From NCBI RefSeq assembly GCF_036321535.1, contig NC_087436.1:23252001-23316000 (forward strand): DNA of 64,000 nt. The letters run 5' to 3'. This DNA comes from Camelus dromedarius (taxonomy: Eukaryota). Position 1 is the first letter of the stretch; the number at the start of each line of letters is the position of its first letter. The notes under the pieces were generated by a model. The model did not search any database. It saw only the letters and a program-made list of their open reading frames with translations, and had not been told where the DNA came from. Made by a program: the position numbers and the translations under genes. Positions 27,428 through 50,943 of this stretch are shown here, piece by piece.

Positions 27428-27981
27428 CAGTAGTCCCCCCCGCTCACTCCATCCACAGTTTTACTTTCTGCCATTTCAGTTACCCACCGTTAACCACGAT
27501 CAGAAAATTTTAAATGGAAAATTCCAGAAATAAACTATTCATAAGTTTCAAAGTGCATGCCTTTCTGAGTAGCATGATGAAATGTCATGCCATCCCACTC
27601 TGTTCCCCCCGGAACTATCCCTTTGTCCAGTATAACCTGCCTGTTAGTCACTCAATAGCCAACCAGTTATCAGATTGACTGTCACCTTATCTCACTCAGT
27701 AGCCAACCAGTTATCAGATTGACTGTCACCTTATCACCCTTATCACAGCATGTGTGCTCAAGTAACCCTTATTTTACTTAATAATGGCTTCCAACTGCAA
27801 GAGTGGTGATACTGGCAATTGGATATTCTCTTACTATGCCTAATTTATAAATTAAACGTTATTATAGGTATGTATGTAAAGGAAAAGAACATAGTATATA
27901 CAAGGTTCAGTCCAACCCTGCGGTTTCAGGCATCCAGTGTGGGTCTTGGAATGTATCCGCATCAAATTAGGTGGCCTACTA
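27428..27981 (+). mobile_element. MER44-like (Tigger7-derived) DNA transposon
   Basis: TA|CAGTAGTCCCCCC...CCTACTA|TA termini; internal AAATGGAAAATTCCAGAAATAAAC and AAGTAACCCTTATTTTACTTAATAATGG. Confidence 0.85.
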
Positions 27982-28959
27982 TACACACAACCTATTCTTA
28001 GGGATGCTTTGACAATTATTCTTATTTTCCCTGCTCCTGGACCAAAAGGAGAAATGAACACTCAAAACAAATCCTTGTATAGGAGCAGAAGTAGGAACAG
28101 CTCCTCCTCCCACAACAAACACACATTACATGGTTTCATTTATAGGTAAGTTAGCACCAGGATTTCATACCTGGGATAGATGTGGAAACACATCCCACTC
28201 GGACGGAAGCAAAGGCCGGAGTACAGATGACCTGCCCAGGGCCACAGAGAAGGGAAGCAGCGGGGCCGCACGTGAGCCAAGCGACCTGCCCCTGTCCTCT
28301 CCTCTGCACGCCCCTGCGCGTGAAATTAAAGGGAGCAAGTGATTATCTCATTTTACATAGTGCTTTAGCCATTTACTACAGATTTGCTTTCTAGTATGTT
28401 TATTATCTCATTTGATATCCTCCTACAAAAAGTATTCAAATGAAACACTTTAAAAGTTCTGAGAGCTCTTGTTTTCTGACTGGGATTTTTTTGCAGTCTG
28501 GTTTTAGTGTTTGAAAGGAGGCAGGAGGAAAAGGGAGTCTAGCTCAAAGGGTGCCTGCAAAGCTTCTGGGGAGCCAGAGAAGTAAGAGGAGCCCCATTCT
28601 TGCCTTGGAGAGCTCCGGCTGGGCGGGACCTTCCACCAGGGTCACTGAGCTCGCGCTTGTTTCAGGGTCTCCCGCCACAGCGCGCCGCGGAAGGTGCCGG
28701 AAGCCTCGGCAGCAGCCGCGCGTGCGCGGGGCGCGGGGCGCGGGGTGCCCGCTGCGATGCGCGCTCCGCGAGGCGCCGACGGCAGGGCGCAGTCGGCCAG
28801 GTACGAGCGCAGCGAGGGCTTTCGAGGTGAAGGGCGGCTCCCCAGGCGCCGAGCGAGGATGGGGAGGTGGGCGGGGCCCGGCGTCCCAGGGCACGCCCCC
28901 GTCAGGCCCACGCCCGGGTCCTTTGAGATCTGGAGCTGCTCAGCCCCCGAGCACCTCGA

Positions 28960-28965
28960 TATAAG
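28960..28965 (+). promoter_or_regulatory. UCP1: TATA box (TATAAG)
   Basis: Only AT-rich motif in the island, 167 nt before the ATG, in the TATAAGTC context recalled for UCP1 promoters. Confidence 0.8.
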
Positions 28966-29126
28966 TCACCCGGGGAGGACAGGGGCACCGAGCGGCCAGC
29001 CTGGGCGCGAGGGAGGGGAGGCCGGCGCCGCCAACTCCTTGCTGCCTCGGCGCGGAGGAGTGAGGAGCCAGGGCGAACTTCCACCTTCGGCGCTGGCACC
29101 GGTGCCTCGCTCCGCGCTGGGTCAGG

Positions 29127-29252
29127 ATGGTGGGGCTGACAGCCTCAGACGTGCCCCCGACCATGGCGGTCAAGATCTTCTCAGCCGGAGTGGCGGCCTG
29201 CGTGGCGGATGTGATCACCTTCCCGCTGGACACGGCCAAAGTCCGGCTACAG
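29127..29252 (+). CDS. UCP1: UCP1 exon 1 (mitochondrial uncoupling protein 1, SLC25A7)
   Basis: AGGATGG Kozak; [47 protein letters not shown]; first Px[DE]xx[KR] carrier motif. Confidence 0.97.
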
Positions 29253-29897
29253 GTAGCGAGCGCGATGGGGATGGAGAGGCAGAGAGCGAACCCCTAGTGT
29301 GTGCGCCTCTTTGATTCTGTCTTTGGTTTAAACATCCTTTCTCACTTTAGGTAGGGCAGGTGGCCACCCTGAAAAAGTTGGACCTGTCACAGGATGGTTG
29401 CGTTAGGGTGGGAAATTGGAATTTTTCCGAAATTAACTGAAGAACCACAGGGTCACCGAGGATGTGTTCACCATGACTGTTGCCAAACTCCCCCAAAGTT
29501 AGGGAGCGCTAAGTGTTCTAAGAGCTAAGGATATCAGCCTCTCCCGAGTTTACAAGCCAAGTTCTTTCTCCTTCCTTCTAATTAGGCGGAAGCACCTTCG
29601 GATCCTACTTCCTTGGGTTTCTGGAAAGTTCATAGGAGTGGGAATGTTCAAACATGCATAGTAGCCAGATTCTCTCTCCTTCCCCTCTTTCTCTCTGGAT
29701 AGATAGAGAGATAGGGGGAGATGATGCTGCGAAGGGAAAAGGAATTGAAAATAGTGAGAAATAATGGGAAAGAATCTTGGCTAACGGTTTCTCTACAGAG
29801 GCTAACCTGATGCCAGTATTTTTTTTTTTTCTCACCAGGTGAGACTCCCTTACTCAATTTTCACTGCCCTCTGACCTGTACCCTTTCTCATTTCCAG

Positions 29898-30096
29898 ATC
29901 CAAGGCGAATGCCAGACCACCCGAGCTGTTAGGTATAAAGTTGTCCTGGGAACAATCACCACTCTGGCAAAAACAGAAGGGCCAGGGAAGCTCTATAGCG
30001 GGCTGCCTGCTGGCCTCCAGAGACAAATAAGCTTCGCCTCTCTTAGGATCGGCCTCTGTGATACCGTCCAGGAGTTCTTCACCACAGGGAAAGAAA
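29898..30096 (+). CDS. UCP1: UCP1 exon 2 (199 nt)
   Basis: tttcc[74 protein letters not shown]. Confidence 0.96.
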
Positions 30097-30754
30097 GTAA
30101 GCAAGCATGGAGCTGTCCTGGGAGGGGCGACAGTCAGAGACTCCTCCGGGACCCAGTTCTGTTAAAAAAAAAAAAAAAGTGGTGCGCACAGAGTAGTGGT
30201 CTTCATAACAGACTGGCAAGCAAACATCAATATTTGAAATTCCTCCTCTACCCCCAAAATACTAGCTTGGTACTCACTGTTCATAGGGAGAGAAAGAAGT
30301 GTTCAAAATCGATTTTTTCAGATGCAGTTTATCACTCACTCAGGTATGGAAGGCTTGGGCCTAATTTGGATATCCATCTGGAGAAGAAGCATACTTTGTG
30401 AAATAATATTTAATTCAAAGTCCCCCCCAAGTGAATTCTGTCAGAAACACCTGCGGAACTTGTTAGACATCCAGATGCTGAGGACTGCCCTGTACCCTGA
30501 ATCTGAATCACTCGGATTAGGCCCGGGGAATCTGTGTTTATCACAAGTTTCCCTGGTAATTTTAGTATGCAACAAATCTGAAAACCTTTGGTTTGAAGAG
30601 AAGAAAACCAGAATTCCCTAACTCCAAACCCTAAGGGCTTATTTCCTTTAAGAAGACTGGGGAAGACCAGAGTAAAAGGAGTGGGCTTAAGTTGTAGTGA
30701 GTTTGTTTAGGGAAAGAAGAAACTGAGTATATACCAAGAGTTCCTGATGGCTTA

Positions 30755-31110
30755 GTTAGCATTTATTTGAGTGCTTACTATAAACCAGATACTGTTCTAA
30801 GTGCCTCAGATACATCATCCCTGCAAAGATTACTATTAATTTTATCCTTTGATAAAACAGGAAGCATAGAGCAGTTTTATAACTTGCCCAAGGTCACACA
30901 GTTGGAAAGGGGCAGAGTGAGAGTTCAAATCCAGGCAGGCTGGCCTCTGACCTCAGCTTTTAACCACAGTACAGTCTTGCCTCCTGCAATTTGCATGTGA
31001 TTCTGTGTGTCACTCAATCCATACAAAAATGCTGTTAGATGCAAAGTGCTGTCCCCATTTTCAGATGGGGAGACTGAGTATCAGAAAAGTTAAGTGAAGA
31101 CCACCCAGCT
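30755..31110 (-). mobile_element. MIR SINE fragments in UCP1 intron 2
   Basis: ATTTATTTGAGTGCTTACTA...AACTTGCCCAAGGTCACACAG. Confidence 0.75.
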
Positions 31111-32421
31111 AGCAAGTATCTGAAACATTTCCATGTAAAGCACACAATCCAGAGAGATGTACAGATGGGGAAGTGAATATGAGTGACTGCCTTGGCAGAT
31201 TTCATCATTTCTGCTTTAAATGACCTTTGGATAACGTAACTTTATGGGACACATTATAATTATTATTTATACCAACAATATAAATTTAAGTTTATCCACA
31301 CTACACTTTCAAAGTAAAGATAAAGTCTGGATGTTTCTAGATCAATACTGCATTTTCTTATTTACAAATGTAGCAAGAGAGGAAGCATAAAGGATGAAAA
31401 GCTGCCTGTTCTGGTGGTATTGTTCACAATTGACTGTTCTAACCAATTGCTGGGGTCTTTCTTTTTCTTCCTTCCTTCCTTCCCCCTTTCCATTCCATTC
31501 CATTCCTTTCCTTCTTTCTTTTTTCAGTTTTATTGAGATATAACTGAGATACAGCACTGTATACATTTAAGGTATATAGCATAATGATTTGACTTACATA
31601 CATCATGAAGTGATTATCACAGTAAATTTAGTTTAAACATCTGTCATATTCCTATTGCAAGACCCTATGTTAAGTGCTGTATTGATATTATTTTAACGCA
31701 CACAATAGATCTGCGAGGTAGACATTATTACCTCTATTATACAGATTAGGAAACAGAATTAGAGAGACTGAGAATGTCCTTGATGTGTAAATGTGATTGA
31801 CCATACTTTAATTATAGGAATGGGTCTTGGACTTCTATTTGAACTTTTACTAAATGGTATCTGTCTTGAGTGACCTAAGCTAATTTTTCAAAATTGCGAA
31901 CAAACAGAAAGATCACTTCATTAGTTTCCTTCTTGTTTTTGTCCCCTTTGTAGCCTGACACCACTTGATGTCCCATATTGGGGCAGGTTGTCCACTTGGG
32001 TTCTTCCTAAGACCCTGAAGTCCAATCATTAACATTCTCATTGATGGGAGGAAGACTGAGCATCCCTGGTGCCTCCTCCCAGTTGGGAAATACTGAAAAA
32101 CAGAGCTAAAGATAAGAAAGAACTGAGCAAAATATAGGAAAGAACTAAGACGCTATTTAAATAGGCAGTGTGTTTTCTTTTCCTTGAAAGCCTTTATTTT
32201 AAAAAATTTCAGTCACCTTTGAAGTCTTCTAGCCCTGCTATGATTTAGTACATGTTTAGTATATGATTGACACGTGTACCAGTATTAGGGAAGTACAGAA
32301 GATACAATGACACAATAATATTAACCACTAAATTAAAAAGACGGTACATTCTGGGTCTTGTTTTTTGTTTTTGTTTTTTCTTTTTTGTTTGACACATCGT
32401 TTTTCTCTCTGATAACAACAG

Positions 32422-32616
32422 CTAGTTTAGGAAGCAAGGTCTCAGCGGGCCTCACAACTGGAGGCGTGGCCGTGTTCACTGGGCAACCCACAGAGGTGGT
32501 GAAGGTCAGACTGCAAGCACAGAGCCATCTCCATGGTCCCAAACCTCGCTACACTGGAACCTACAATGCTTACAGAATTATAGCCACTACAGAAGGCTTG
32601 ACGGGGCTGTGGAAAG
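32422..32616 (+). CDS. UCP1: UCP1 exon 3 (195 nt)
   Basis: aacAG|CT AGT; (T)[73 protein letters not shown]1-diagnostic SHLHG. Confidence 0.94.
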
Positions 32617-32715
32617 GTAACTCACTTCAAGATGCATTTTACCATCTTCAGACACGTGTATCCAACTGGCACCTTATCATATAATGGAGCCATTAAGCAC
32701 TTTCTTTTCTTCCAG

Positions 32716-32817
32716 GGACCACTCCCAATCTGACAAGAAATGTTATCATCAATTGTACAGAGCTAGTGACGTATGACCTGATGAAGGCGGCCCTTGTGAA
32801 AAACAAACTATTAGCAG
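32716..32817 (+). CDS. UCP1: UCP1 exon 4 (102 nt)
   Basis: ttccAG|(G)[39 protein letters not shown]. Confidence 0.96.
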
Positions 32818-33533
32818 GTAACTTTTTTTTTTACACAGCAAGTCAGCACATTTACAGTTTCATCTTGGAGTTTCTCCAGCCATATTATACTGAATCCCTT
32901 AATTGTAATAGTTTTCTTTCTTAAAAAATTAAGTACTTTTGAACAATACAGTATAACTAAAACCCTAAGTTTTAGAAGTTTTGCTGCAACAGTTTTTGGT
33001 TTTGCAACAAAACCAAGAGGCAACTGTATTCTTACATCAGCATTATTCTCATTTAATACTAATAGATGAGATTTCTGTTAGCATCTTATGCTTTATAAAG
33101 CAGAATTCAGGAAGTGAGTCCACCCTACACTAAGTCCAGATGAGCTAGTTACATAAGGAGCTCCTCAGTGGTTTCGGCAAAAAAACAGTACCATTGAATA
33201 GGTTCCTAAAGTTTTTATTCTAACAGGTTCTGTAGACATTGAAATTCTCCTTGGACAATGACTTTAATTCAGTAAAAAAGTATTCGATGTCTATGTATCG
33301 AGCATTATGTCATGCCCTAAGGACACAGGGAAAAGTGACAGGTTATTTTCCTAAAGCACTTACAATGTAAGGTACTTATACTTAACCTTCCTTATTGTAT
33401 TTATTGATAAGACATCTGTGTTGATCTCCTGTTTACAACAGGAGGTTTACAAAGGTTTACAAAGATCTGATAACTGAAAATGAGAAGCTCCTCCCAAAGT
33501 CTGGTGTTGACCTGTTTCATTGGTCCGTTTCAG

Positions 33534-33702
33534 ATGACGTGCCCTGCCACTTTGTGTCCGCTGTTATCGCTGGATTTTGCACAACCGTTCTGTCCTCTCC
33601 AGTGGATGTGGTGAAAACCAGGTTTGTTAACTCTCCACCAAGTGTGCCCAACTGCGCAATGACGATGCTCACTAAGGAAGGACCATCGGCTTTCTTCAAA
33701 GG
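33534..33702 (+). CDS. UCP1: UCP1 exon 5 (169 nt, 12 nt shorter than the usual 181)
   Basis: tttcAG|(D)[62 protein letters not shown]. Confidence 0.96.
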
Positions 33703-34534
33703 GTAGGTCTTCCGCATCTGTAATGCTGTGGTCAGGGTATCTGTGTGCTGCGGGGTGCTGTCTCGTCTAAACAATTGACAATTAGCTGACCAGCCTTAGT
33801 ATGTGCAGTACACTTAGTGTCTACTTTTCCTCGCCATAAATTTCTCCAATCCACCAATTCCACTGTGCCAGAAAATTTAAAGCTGTGATATTAAAATTCT
33901 CCCAGGCTTTGAAGAGGCTCTTTCAAAGCCAGTGACTTCCTCCTTGGTCTTCACCTATCGGAAATGTAGACAGTATTCTGCCTTCCCTGGGCAGAAGTAT
34001 AAAATGGAAGGAAAGCATAATAGAAGGCTATGAGAAAACAAGATTTGATTTTCACTATTTTAATTTAATAGGCCCTGTTTTTTAGATTGTATTCAAGCAA
34101 AACTAGAGAAAAATCATTGTTATTGATCTAGAAAAGCTATGTAGAAAACGATGTAGTTTGGTGATTACACTTACCTAGAAACTACTATCACATAATGGAT
34201 CATATTTTTCCATAAAGCAATATTATATTAATATTATAATCACCTTCTTAAGAAAATATAGTATGAACTAATTTATGGGTATACTCCACAAGGATTACAT
34301 GTGGTAAAATAACAGAATTCTATGAACTTAAAAAATTGTAAGGCAATGCCTCAAACCTTATAAGCATAAATGCATGGCACACATTATACAAGAGCTGCTA
34401 ATTCACCATTTACGACACATTAACACAAATGGAATATATTGTAAAATTAACTGAAAATAGATGTATCAGTTATCAATCAGTAGCCATTTAACAATAATTT
34501 TATTTTTTTCAAATTTAAAAACTTCTGGGGGGAT

Positions 34535-34862
34535 ACATGCTACAAGGGTGTACTCTGAAAATGTTATACTAAACAAAATGAGCCAGATACAGAAGGACAA
34601 ACATTGTTTGAGTCTACATATATGAGGTAAAATTCATAGAAACAGGAAGCGCAGCAGTGGGTACCAGGGGATGAGGGGTGGAGGAGCAGGGAGTTGTTTT
34701 TTAATGTGTGCAGAGATTCCGTTTGGGATGACCAAAGGTTCTGGAGATGGAGAGTGATGATGACTGCTCACAATGAGAACATACTGAATGTGACTGGATT
34801 ATACACTTAAAATGGCTAAAATGATAAATTGATGCTATGTATATTTTACCACAGTTAAAACA
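34535..34862 (+). mobile_element. L1MB-type 3' end in UCP1 intron 5
   Basis: AGCCAGATACAGAAGGACAAA...TTCTGGAGATGGA...TATATTTTACCACA. Confidence 0.8.
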
Positions 34863-35549
34863 CACACAACACACACACATCCAGGAGTCAGGAGAAATGT
34901 TAAGAGAGCTGCCAAAATCTTTGGGGCTGATTTTTATGGGCCAGATTTCTAAAATATCTATACAAGGCAGACTGAACTGATGACATTTTTCTTCTGGAAT
35001 ATTTCATTGCTGTGAACAGGAATTCGAAATCAATCATTAGGCCTGCGCAGTTGGGCAGAATTCTTAAAAATAATAAGAGCAACAACAACAACAAAACGCA
35101 GTTAGATCCTGAGAATCTTAGGACAAGAATCGCCAAGATCTAGACTTGGCATTAATTTCTTGACTCCAGAAAATGGTCCTACGTACTCATCACTTTGCTT
35201 TCTCCTCTTACTTTCTCTTCTAAAGTTTCCTACTTCCCCTTCAGAAAGCAAAGCAAGACACAAAATTTCCTTTTCTCTCAAAAAAGGAGAAAAGATCACG
35301 AAAAAGGAGACAAGCTCTGGTTTGGTGGGACTGTTTGTACTGATGTGATCACCTGGGTATGGTTCTGATGCAGGATAGGGCATCTAGATGAAACTTCATG
35401 TTAGGCAGAGGAGGGAAAGATGAAGAATAGGTACTTCTGAGCATTTGCACTGGAGAAGAGTGGCGAAAGGAGACGCATGAACTGCCGGTACTGTAATAGC
35501 TCTGAGAACTTCATGCAAACTAACGGAATGCTGACATGTACTTTTCCAG

Positions 35550-35664
35550 ATTTGTACCTTCCTTCTGGCGACTCGGATCCTGGAACGTCATTATGTTTGT
35601 GTGCTTTGAACAGCTGAAACGAGAACTGATGAAGTCAAGGCAGACCGTGGACTGTGCCACATAA
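35550..35664 (+). CDS. UCP1: UCP1 exon 6, coding part
   Basis: ttttccAG|(G)[37 protein letters not shown]; spliced CDS 906 nt = 301 aa plus stop. Confidence 0.96.
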
Positions 35665-36103: not shown

Positions 36104-36109
36104 AATAAA
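36104..36109 (+). terminator. UCP1: Probable UCP1 polyadenylation signal
   Basis: AATAAA about 440 nt after the stop, followed by a GT-rich element. Confidence 0.7.
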
Positions 36110-46727: not shown

Positions 46728-49691
46728 AACTTAATTCTGAGCTATCAGGCCTATCTAGTAGGCCCTTGGCTAGACTTTGAAGTATTCTGACAAACAAGTG
46801 GTCTAACAAGAGACTTTTTATCTGCCTTAAAAAAAATTTAGACTTCCATTTGTTTGTTCTAAATTTTCTATAAAATAGTCATCGTGTACCTGTTGGGACA
46901 CTTCCTTTCACCTGAGCTTATTCCTTCTGTTGCAGTTTATATCTGTATTGTTTAAAGCTACTGACAGTGCAATCAGAAGAAAGTCATTAACATTCCTTCT
47001 ACGTTACGTAACTAAAACACTGGCCATAAAACATAAGTATCAGCTGGTACAACAGAGAAATACATAAAGCTATTTGTAGGTTCATATATCCTAATACTAG
47101 TAAACTAATGCAACCTCTGAGTTCTTCAAGATAGGCATCAAATCTTCCGTTCACACTTGGAATCTCCTCGTAAGGTACTGATACTCATACACAAAAGACT
47201 GACCGCATGTTTATGTAAGAATAACAAGTAGAGTAAAACATGGATTTCGGTGGTTTATTTAAATTTTAAAGGGCATAATCATTGAAATTTCATGAAGCAT
47301 AGAAATTTCTAACTAAATGTTCCTTCTCTATTTTTCCTTCTGTAGATTAACACTACAGACTTCCATTTTTTCTTCACTGGCTCTGATTTTCAGCCCATTA
47401 AAACAGCGTATGTTAACTTAGAAGCCCACAAATAAAGGATCATTCATGAATAAAAGGGGATCCATGAACCACCTTAAATTTATTCATACATTTTTCTGTG
47501 TGTACATTTTCCAGGCAAAGAATATACACAACTTTCATCAAATTCTCAAAGGGGACCTGTAAATCCCCAAACAGAAAAACGTCCTGTTTTAGTGCAATGC
47601 TCTCTTCACACACTCTAATTTTCTACTTTATTCCTAGTCTGGCTCTAAAATGCCCTTAGTAAATAGACTATATTTAATTTTTTTACATGATACTCCTAAT
47701 ACAATTCGGTTTTACATCACTATTTCAATAATCAAGCTACCTTAAAAATATTCAGTCTGTAAAACTTTTAATTTCTTTGCTGGGCCCCTATCTTAACAGT
47801 GTCTGAGGAAAATCAGCACGTATGCAGCAAGGAAGCGTATTCCTTACAATCACCTGGACTGACTTATTTTCCTTCTTTCTTCCCTTCTCCTTCCTTTCTA
47901 CCCTCTCTCCTGTCCTATATAACATTTTTGGCCTTAACTTGTATATTTTACTTTCTGCTTCTATTTCCTCATCTATTTAGGTTTTTCTAATCTCTCTTGA
48001 ATTAATTTTTCTGTACAATATCCTCTTTGCTTCTACACCTGCCTCAGCATTCACTAGCATGGTTATCTATCAAACTACCAGCTATCCTTTAAAGCCACAA
48101 AAATTTCAAGAGATTTGATGACAAAGGCCAAGAAATTTTTAAAATTCATTATGTAAGGGTGTCTGAACAGCTCTCCTGCTTCTTGACTGTATCTTTATTT
48201 TGACCCTGAAGAGTCATAGCTCCATACACAGAACAAAAATAGTCAGAGAGGAATTAGAGCTAGTTTTATGTTTTCAACCATCTCTAGTACGTCAATGGCA
48301 ATCAAATAATACATCTGAATTCTGGTCATTTTTCAAGTTAGTAGATACTAGCTCTAAATAGAGTAAAAATACTTGTAAAGCATTTAAAGATCTATCAGAA
48401 TCCCTTTCCGGAGTCTTGAATGAAATCCTGTAAGTTATTTAAATTTTAAGCTAAATTAAATTCTCTTCTAGTAAACGCTGAAAAATCTTGATTTCTGAGG
48501 AAACGAGCCAAAAGCAAGGTTACTCAGCAAAAGTGAAGAAAGGAAACACCAGAAGAATGTGTATCTAATTGAAGTTCAATTATCTGTGTAGTTTACAAGT
48601 ACCAAGAAGACAGATGGTCTTTAAAGGCTAAGAACAAAAGATCAATATGTTCTGAACAATGAATTTTAAAATATTTTATAATTTTTCCAAGTGAAAACAC
48701 ATTGCATTTATTCTACTTAAATTCCGAATGGCAGTTTCTGTTTATCAAAGTGGAAAACTGGCAATCTCACTTTTGTAATTATAATTATTAAGACTACTGG
48801 GTTTTATCTTTGAGAAGTAGACATACAAGGAATTTTCATACTCATAAAACTTAGGTATCATGGAAAATTAAATACTTTTATAATTAAAAATAATTATAGA
48901 TGGTGAAGCCCTACTGTGTCTTCTATTTTGCCCCACAACACCCTTATCCCTACTGACCTAGGTATTTTTCCTCAATATTAACATAATCTAGCTCAGTTTC
49001 AGGATTAATTTTTTCATGGTAACAATTATCCAAACTTTGTTAATGGCTAGGGTTTCCATTCTAGGTACTACAGAGTCTATAAATCACAATTCAAGGACAG
49101 ACCCAAACACTAGAATCTTTCCATCTGCATATTCATATCCATATTAACCTTACAGTTTATTTTCTAAAACAGTTTTGACTACCAATTCTGATTTTAGTTG
49201 CATATTTTGAGATTTCATATGTGTGCCCAAGCATAAGTATTAAAGAGAAAAAAAAGAGGGAGCTCATATGGCCTCTGAAAAGTGAGATATAGATCGCTCA
49301 TCACAGATGGCAAAGAATAAGTGTGAAGAGGCTTTACTATCATCTCTGGTTATATCTCCTAACTAGAATCAGAGAGCCAAGAGAGAAGAGGCAGGAGGAT
49401 AAAAAGAGTGAGAAGAGAGTACACATAGTCCCTTAAAAGGCATCAGAAAGGAGGTCAGGAAGAGAAAGAAAGAGGAAAGTTACTGGTAAGTAAAGCAGTC
49501 ACACACACACAAAGTATGTGGTCAACATCTTCATATTGTTGCCAGCACATTAGTAAATACTTTAAGCACAACAGCTATTAAAATTCAGAGATAGTATGAA
49601 ACAACTGGATTAATTCTTACTAGAATTTAACAAGATTGGAGATTACATGTAATTTCATTTACAGAAGAAAAGAAAGTTTATTTTCACTTAC

Positions 49692-49825
49692 ACAAGATTG
49701 ATTAATCCAAGCAGGCCCATGCCTCTGAAGTCTGTTTTGGGATCATCACCCTGGAAACCAATGTCAGCCCACTGCTTGGAGATTCTGGCCTTCAACTTTT
49801 TCGTGGGCATTAGAAGATTCCAAAG
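49692..49825 (-). CDS. ELMOD2: ELMOD2 coding exon (134 nt) with the ELMOD GAP motif
   Basis: LWNLLMPTKKLKARISKQWADIGFQGDDPKTDFRGMGLLGLINLV; WxxxGFQxxxPxTDFRGxG motif with catalytic Arg. Confidence 0.97.
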
Positions 49826-50943
49826 CTGTACAAACATGCTTCCATATTACAAATAATAGTGATGCTCTTCATTTACCAAGACATTTTCCTTCTCATAGCT
49901 GATGTACTAGTAACTTGAACGCTTTCAACTAAGCAACTTTTGTAGACAAATCATAGGCTCAATGAAGGCTGTATTTAAAGAACTTTTCAATTATCCTAAA
50001 AAATGTAACATACTTATTCCAATTCAAAAGATTGATATAAAGAACAGTAGATTTTAAAAAGGCAACAAATACACAAAATTCTAAGACAATGAGATGTCTT
50101 TACTGACTAAGTAACATATATATATCAGAATTGGTAAACTGCTTCCTGGAGAAGAACACAGTGCTAGCCAGGCACTGCTGGCAACTGGCTCTTCACCTCT
50201 AAAGGAGTTTCATGATGAATCACCAAGATGAAAATTCCCTTGACTGAAATGCTAGGACTTGTGTCTTACCCCTTCAAAAGGGAAAGTACTGCACAGAAAG
50301 GGTCTGAAGTTAAGGAAATAGTGATGACAAGGAGGATATAAAGAGTGGTCCAGCCTCAGGGAGTGCCAGGCACTATTCTAACACTTTAAATACAAAAATT
50401 CAATCCACAGCAACAGCCCTTTAGTTACTTTTATTATCCTCATTGACAAAATCAAGTTTTATTTTTAATTTTAAAATTAGTAGAAGTGTATATTTATACT
50501 CTTTCTGAAAAAAAGTAAAAGGTTTTATTGTTCTTAAGCTTGTCTCTTACTGTTACTCAGATGCTATCAACATACTTTTCCCCAGCACTTTTAGTTCTAG
50601 CAAATGCCTAACTCCAGGAGCAATGTGCCATTTTCCCTAATTTTAACCATTTAAAAACACAACCAGAATAGGTGAAGTGGATGGGCAGGTGACTCAGCTG
50701 TATTTCAGAATTCACCATTCTAGGACCTTCTAAAGCAAATTACTTCATCTCCTCTAGGCCCTAGAACTGACCTCATCCCTAAAATGAACGTTCTAGATCA
50801 GATGATCTGGAAAGCTTACTCCAGGTCTAATATTCTCTCATTTCGGCATCTCACTGGCCTTATGCACTCATACTTCAGGAACAAGAAACAGGAAGGTTCA
50901 GGTAAATTTATTTACTCTCCAAACATACAACACCAAAACTTAC

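Follow-up and report, generated by a model that had tools for sequence, protein, structure and literature searches.

We have studied the gene UCP1 in a stretch of 64,000 nucleotides from Camelus dromedarius (contig NC_087436.1, positions 23,252,001–23,316,000), which we call the window; positions below refer to it unless another contig is named. The gene has an open reading frame. Nevertheless UCP1 has probably been released from selection in the genus Camelus, with a product which is weakened or inactive. The core of this idea, a deletion and a neutrally evolving camel branch, has been known since 2017. We add a map of the changes by species, relate them to two cardiolipin motifs and to a brace of the gate, and find that the sparing of the nucleotide pocket is what chance would give. 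Papers are cited by their PMC number, mostly from the portions of their text available to us.

The coding sequence is distributed in six exons, with residues numbered as in human UCP1:

29127–29252, + strand: exon 1, coding part, 126 nt
29898–30096, + strand: exon 2, 199 nt, with S50T at 29919–29921, G57V at 29940–29942 and Y96C at 30057–30059
32422–32616, + strand: exon 3, 195 nt, human residues 110–111 absent, I130T at 32478–32480
32716–32817, + strand: exon 4, 102 nt, E200A at 32787–32789, a variable site
33534–33702, + strand: exon 5, 169 nt, with a 12-nt in-frame deletion of residues 246–249
35550–35664, + strand: exon 6, 115 coding nt ending with the stop, with L276W at 35566–35568

The junction of the deletion, 33640/33641, is a placement from the protein alignment. 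All boundaries are GT-AG. Splicing and translation give 906 nt and 301 amino acids with a single terminal stop, as an initial annotation of this sequence had read them. The product shows no difference from the dromedary record P0115 (KAB1282774.1), which may derive from the same assembly. From human UCP1 (P0131, NP_068605.1) it differs at 55 positions, including the deletion of 246–249, G57V, Y96C, I130T, E200A and L276W. The initial annotation had listed these six changes and alignment confirms them all; the list was accurate but incomplete, since 307 residues minus four leaves 303, not 301, and the loss of 110–111 had been overlooked. The residues which it described as retained match human UCP1 in 20 of 20 cases (eleven named residues and the P, D/E and K/R of the three signature motifs).

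Residues 110–111 are missing from the predicted product because the first AG of intron 2 past the pyrimidine tract is at 32420. Two camel database models with 303 amino acids (P0114, P0007) include residues at these positions. In the scanned stretch (32410–32425) no canonical acceptor would supply them: the AG at 32420 is the only one before the start of exon 3. Their presence in these models is probably a modelling choice. The alpaca and cattle models with 309 amino acids have an exon 1 which is four codons longer, so that another donor should lie 12 bases inside intron 1; at this place (29253–29270) the window has no GT.

Neutral evolution of this gene was reported by Gaudry et al. 2017 (PMC5507634) for C. 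ferus, together with the four-residue deletion (12 bp of exon 5); Gaudry and Campbell 2017 (PMC5611445) extended the deletion to the dromedary. Table S2 of the first paper gives the C. ferus branch a ratio dN/dS (omega) of 1.03 against a background of 0.16, with a marginal significance (likelihood ratio test, p=0.031). In the free-ratio tree C. ferus has 1.26, alpaca 0.051 and the camelid stem 0.083. In the matching trees the camel branch has 0.0001 and 0.30; by their order and taxa we take these trees to be UCP2 and UCP3. The same paper gives 0.94 for pseudogenic UCP1 branches. The relaxed selection or early-stage pseudogene proposed by the initial annotation is supported, but it was already published, and the dN/dS of the branch exists for C. 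ferus.

The altered positions have been compared with those of 67 placentals outside the camelids, each species represented by a single near-full-length UCP1 record. This panel excludes short isoforms, fragments and additional close relatives, as well as the lineages in which UCP1 is known to be a pseudogene (whales, sirenians, elephant and elephant seals). G57, Y96, Y248 and L276 are invariant in all 67 species, G246 is found in 66, and position 130 is I in 64 and V in three. None of the 67 has a gap anywhere in 112–295. Two other candidates for damage were rejected. Column 200 has E in 41 species, G in 14, D in 7 and A in 2: E200A, which had been counted as erosion, is ordinary variation. 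Fourteen panel species lack position 110 and 19 lack position 111, sheep and cattle among them.

As background for the proportion of changes on conserved columns we took 33 disjoint pairs of panel species (66 of the 67). They show 753 differences, of which 102 are in columns conserved to at least 95% and 23 in invariant columns. The four camelids show residue differences in eight columns, six of the first class and three of the second (Fisher p=0.00016 and 0.0018); these counts are small, the 95% threshold was picked after the data had been seen, and three of the six matches are barely above it (0.96–0.97). Random placement over the 307 columns, 180 and 119 of which belong to these classes, fits the camelid shares (P=0.29 and 0.66). 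If only dromedary and alpaca are compared, the counts are 3 and 2 of 5 (p=0.021 and 0.0098); for wild camel and alpaca they are 4 and 1 of 6 (p=0.0043 and 0.18). The differences come from pairwise comparison of living species and are not a per-branch substitution map. As a protein-level proxy, conserved columns altered at the rate of random change indicate neutral coding evolution, together with the published omega of 1.03. The earlier statement that the damage clusters on structural motifs is correct as a description (G57, Y96, Y248); the share of conserved columns, on the other hand, is that of unselected change.

The distribution of the changes among species was established in an alignment of 18 UCP1 sequences. 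Alpaca and camels share E200A, L276W and the 110–111 gap, which is also found in sheep, cattle and whales. S50T, Y96C, I130T and the deletion are common to the five Camelus records and absent from alpaca. G57V is present in both dromedary records and in none of the three from Bactrian and wild camels; the two may not be independent of this assembly, and G57V is to be taken as seen in both records, not as fixed in the species. A255S and A89P are found in the three Bactrian and wild camel records, A24T in two Bactrian records. Dromedary and alpaca differ by five substitutions and one deletion only. The three differences between dromedary and wild camel all fall on conserved columns; therefore erosion went on after these species had split. 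In these sequences erosion is a feature of Camelus, not of camelids at large, continued separately in the one- and two-humped lines. The initial annotation had spoken of a camelid copy, which is too wide: four of its six changes (G57V, Y96C, I130T and the deletion) are not found in alpaca, and both alpaca and the camelid stem have a low omega.

Errors of assembly or annotation are an extremely improbable source of these changes, and for the shared ones they are already refuted. The deletion, Y96C and I130T also occur in C. ferus and C. bactrianus records, hence they are not errors of the dromedary assembly; the initial annotation had raised this possibility itself. They recur in three camel species, and the deletion is described in two papers (PMC5507634, PMC5611445). 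Six sequencing runs not labelled as RNA, from five studies, hold 0.99–1.00 of 751 sampled words, although one run may be the source of the assembly and the resolution is too coarse to exclude one differing base. What favours an error is G57V, seen solely in the two dromedary records.

Two structural elements are affected. The [YF]xG motifs which precede the matrix helices are part of the cardiolipin sites, and human UCP1 has three (PMC5395090). G57V alters the first, the deletion removes Y248 from the third, which keeps its serine, and the second is intact: the dromedary has lost two of the three motifs of a functional UCP1. Y96 and Y195 are the two tyrosine braces of the cytoplasmic gate (PMC10413660). 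Y195 is kept, whereas Y96 is a cysteine in the dromedary, which thus lacks one of them. The extent to which the carrier gates are used in proton leak is described as unclear in PMC13173328. In the two-humped line A89P places a proline within helix H2 (78–104 in the model).

The initial annotation had stressed that the nucleotide pocket is spared. We rejected this as a signal: four to eight random events would miss the 16–26 listed residues with a probability of 0.49–0.81, and L276W adjoins R277. This bears on a very unlikely alternative, a retuning by selection in which weaker cardiolipin anchoring and a weaker cytoplasmic gate, with the pocket intact, would give a lower leak, a changed lipid control or a transport role. 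It would fit a desert physiology which saves water and energy, and the changes do concentrate on one class of elements (two cardiolipin motifs, a tyrosine brace) with the pocket untouched. An omega near 1 can also reflect a mixture of positive and purifying selection, and is compatible with this alternative. Against it stand the chance sparing of the pocket, the agreement of the changes in conserved columns with random placement, and the further changes which differ between one- and two-humped lines, A89P included. UCP1 is named as a sweep candidate of Kazakh Bactrian camels in the text of PMC13564503 (2026), but the mention cannot be traced in its tables: ‘UCP’ occurs 0 times in the supplementary tables and the presumed neighbours of UCP1 are also absent, although an unnamed locus label could hide the gene; FGF6, PPARGC1A and PDGFRA occur 18, 118 and 62 times. 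We found no positive evidence for the rewired function which the initial annotation also offered. It is somewhat less improbable, still doubtful, that camel UCP1 is made and folded as a natural separation-of-function variant, in which the nucleotide pocket and the matrix gate would be preserved and two cardiolipin motifs and one of the two cytoplasmic braces lost.

An AlphaFold model of the dromedary protein keeps the UCP1 fold (template modelling score 0.87, root mean square deviation 2.5 to human UCP1, 8HBV). The mean predicted local distance difference score is 74.6, against 77.4 in a sheep control, and only one of the five dromedary models exceeds 70. Block 241–250 scores 69 in dromedary and 83 in sheep, and the loop ahead of the third matrix helix has four residues instead of eight. 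Block 281–290 is also lower (56 and 74); given this, and the single model above 70, we consider the model uninformative on function.

The history which best explains these data would be the following. Purifying selection on UCP1 would have lapsed on the stem of the Old World camels, once they had separated from the alpaca lineage. Changes would then have accumulated regardless of constraint: the shared deletion of four residues, Y96C, I130T and S50T, followed by G57V in the dromedary, and by A89P and A255S (with A24T in Bactrian records) in the two-humped line. Camel UCP1, if made, would bind cardiolipin more poorly, be less stable and show little or no proton leak activated by fatty acids. 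The probable cause would be a large body and birth size, which may have cut the value of brown-fat heat. The frame would be open by chance, neutral changes being too few for a stop or frameshift to be likely. We applied a neutral model to the dromedary coding sequence, assuming a transition bias of 4 and one indel per 8 substitutions, 80% of them frameshifting. It yields 0.23 disabling events per amino-acid change. The frame would survive four changes with a probability of 0.40 and seven with a probability of 0.20, so that its being open is weak evidence that the gene functions. Four changes need about 3–7 million years at an assumed rate of 1–2.2 x 10^-9 per site per year. A precedent is the UCP1 of the elephant seal, with seven substitutions and a two-residue deletion, which does not respond to palmitate even when its frameshift is repaired (PMC11050727).

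Several observations weigh against a lapse of selection, besides the marginal published probability, the small counts, the late choice of threshold and the naming as a sweep candidate. The six exons contain no frameshift and no premature stop, and their start and splice sites are intact, so that dromedary UCP1 lacks the disabling lesion of a unitary pseudogene. All 16 nucleotide and cavity residues listed in PMC13173328 have the human or panel-majority form (R84, R183, R277, Q85, K38, K138, R92, N188, E191, N282, D28, W281 and others), the modelled fold is kept, and so are the core motifs of the enhancer, the TATA box and the CpG island. In a leave-one-out count the dromedary has 5 departures at conserved sites, alpaca has 1 and 36 of the 67 panel species have none; hedgehog and owl monkey have 4 each and fox has 7, therefore the count alone is not extreme.

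Some of these points favour an alternative which we consider unlikely: camel UCP1 would still be an ordinary heater. The deletion would do no more than shorten a loop on the matrix side, the protein would tolerate the substitutions, and the high omega would be noise due to small numbers on a short branch. The frame is open in all five Camelus records, one of them modelled with a further gap of 8 residues. The pocket, E135, Q100, E101, F289 and the matrix network equal human, the regulatory elements are kept and the model folds like UCP1. Furthermore L276, otherwise invariant, is W in alpaca under an omega of 0.05, which implies that invariance is no proof of indispensability. Against an ordinary heater, three further invariant columns (G57, Y96, Y248) are altered in the dromedary, the share of changes on conserved columns is far above background, none of the 67 other placentals has a gap in the matrix loop, and the published omega differs from background. 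A lapse of selection in Camelus remains our preferred reading.

The regulatory region was compared with the consensus motifs and forms in PMC5611445:

24630–24820, + strand: distal enhancer, approximate limits
24635: CRE-3 core
24651: URE1-like, 3 mismatches in 13
24673: CRE-2, 1 mismatch in 8
24715: RARE-3, exact
24766: PPARG/PPRE, exact
28600–29250, no strand: CpG island over promoter and exon 1, GC 0.71–0.76, CpG observed/expected 0.77–1.08 (200-base bins, 28600–29199)
28958–28964, + strand: TATA box, exact form of cow, camel and giraffe
36104–36109, + strand: AATAAA, probable polyadenylation signal, the only one from the stop to 37000

In this enhancer dnTRE has no ungapped match; the best one has 5 mismatches in 16. 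According to PMC5611445 camels retain the same regulatory elements, with multiple mutations in the dnTRE/NBRE region, and enhancers persist beside several true UCP1 pseudogenes too. Upstream of the promoter (about 27648–27736) we noticed by eye a near-perfect tandem duplication of about 45 bases, probably in an old transposon. A word search in 24 sequencing runs found 0.21–0.33 of the sampled words in four runs recorded as RNA (one study) and 0.16–0.32 in ten guessed as RNA, where mature mRNA should give about 0.18; these are run-level shares, in which spliced mRNA, intronic RNA, repeats and DNA carry-over are indistinguishable, and they are not used as evidence.

The gene is the UCP1 (SLC25A7) orthologue, present in a single copy and closest to UCP1 rather than to UCP2 or UCP3. 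The genome search gave a single six-exon UCP1 locus and two weaker paralogues of six-exon type, adjacent on contig C12. Exons 2 and 5 have human UCP1 as best PDB match, with a four-residue gap in the case of exon 5. A protein search with exon 2 gave 105 proteins, headed by Bactrian camel UCP1, whose cluster has six members from dromedary, Bactrian camel, wild camel and alpaca. The carrier family PF00153 matches in 3 stretches (203.8 bits); Px[DE]xx[KR] is present in all three carrier repeats, its nine motif residues as in human. RabGAP-TBC exons are found about 50 kb upstream on the + strand, and downstream an ELMO_CED12 exon on the - strand (49685–49837), with one stop codon in the match, probably at the exon edge. 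We take these neighbours to be TBC1D9 and ELMOD2, between which a UCP1 orthologue is expected to lie.

Five long stop-free UCP1-like matches with 25–34% identity are other carrier genes or retrocopies, in genome G000:

C16:19745713-19746087
C14:60565282-60565674
C5:89921866-89922390
C36:6088076-6088537
C14:32577214-32577738

Some other sequences have features of their own. L276W, shared with an alpaca gene under purifying selection, is either a tolerated change or camelid tuning. Red fox (P0109) has the most departures at otherwise conserved sites in the panel (7); a long canid UCP1 branch is described in PMC5611445. Walrus (P0162), a large-bodied species with an intact gene, has P11Q and C254Y at conserved sites.

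The literature matches listed, which leave subscription journals mostly outside coverage, include neither an assay of camel UCP1 nor a study of its expression in fat. The function is unexamined in most large mammals (PMC11050727); camels are not mentioned in the available portions of this paper and of PMC11899873, and PMC9187634, PMC12292770 and PMC11295981 mention UCP1 only in passing. A brain immunostaining for UCP1 which includes a dromedary (PMC7970898) was discounted as evidence of protein, because it also stains whales, whose UCP1 is reported inactivated.

Comparison with known systems begins with the 2017 papers (PMC5507634, PMC5611445), which treat the same gene with the same deletion and interpret it in the same way, as a neutrally evolving and possibly compromised gene with an intact frame and its regulatory elements kept. 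However, in their available portions they discuss the deletion only; G57V, Y96C, L276W and the mapping to cardiolipin motifs and brace are not seen there, and omega is that of C. ferus, not of the dromedary. Human UCP1 (8G8W, 8HBV) is the best PDB match in sequence and structure and shares the signature motifs, arginine triplet and nucleotide contacts; the dromedary differs by the absence of 110–111 and 246–249, by its altered first and third [YF]xG motifs and Y96 brace, and by a W beside R277. Alpaca (XP_031548092.1) is the nearest sister, with E200A, L276W and the 110–111 gap in common, but it keeps 246–249, G57, Y96 and I130. The elephant seal pseudogene (PMC11050727) also belongs to a large-bodied lineage, with an in-frame deletion and few substitutions; it is transcribed and, when assayed, non-thermogenic even if repaired, whereas the camel gene has no frameshift and is known from sequence. 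Pig, equid, cetacean, elephant and other pseudogenes (PMC5507634) have an omega near 1, as in camel, but unlike the camel gene they are disrupted by frameshifts, stops, splice mutations or the deletion of exons.

As a discovery little is added, both the deletion and the signal of neutral evolution having been published in 2017; the remaining value is that of a candidate case for function. Automated screens of gene loss score such open-frame decay as intact. Alpaca offers a close and apparently constrained control for the dromedary gene. If a separation-of-function variant still leaked protons under the control of fatty acids, or had turned to another transport role, the series alpaca, wild camel and dromedary would directly test the need for the cytoplasmic gate (m-state) and for bound cardiolipin in heat production. 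If selection has indeed lapsed, camels would be one more lineage which has independently lost brown-fat heating, observed at a stage when no stop or frameshift has yet arisen.

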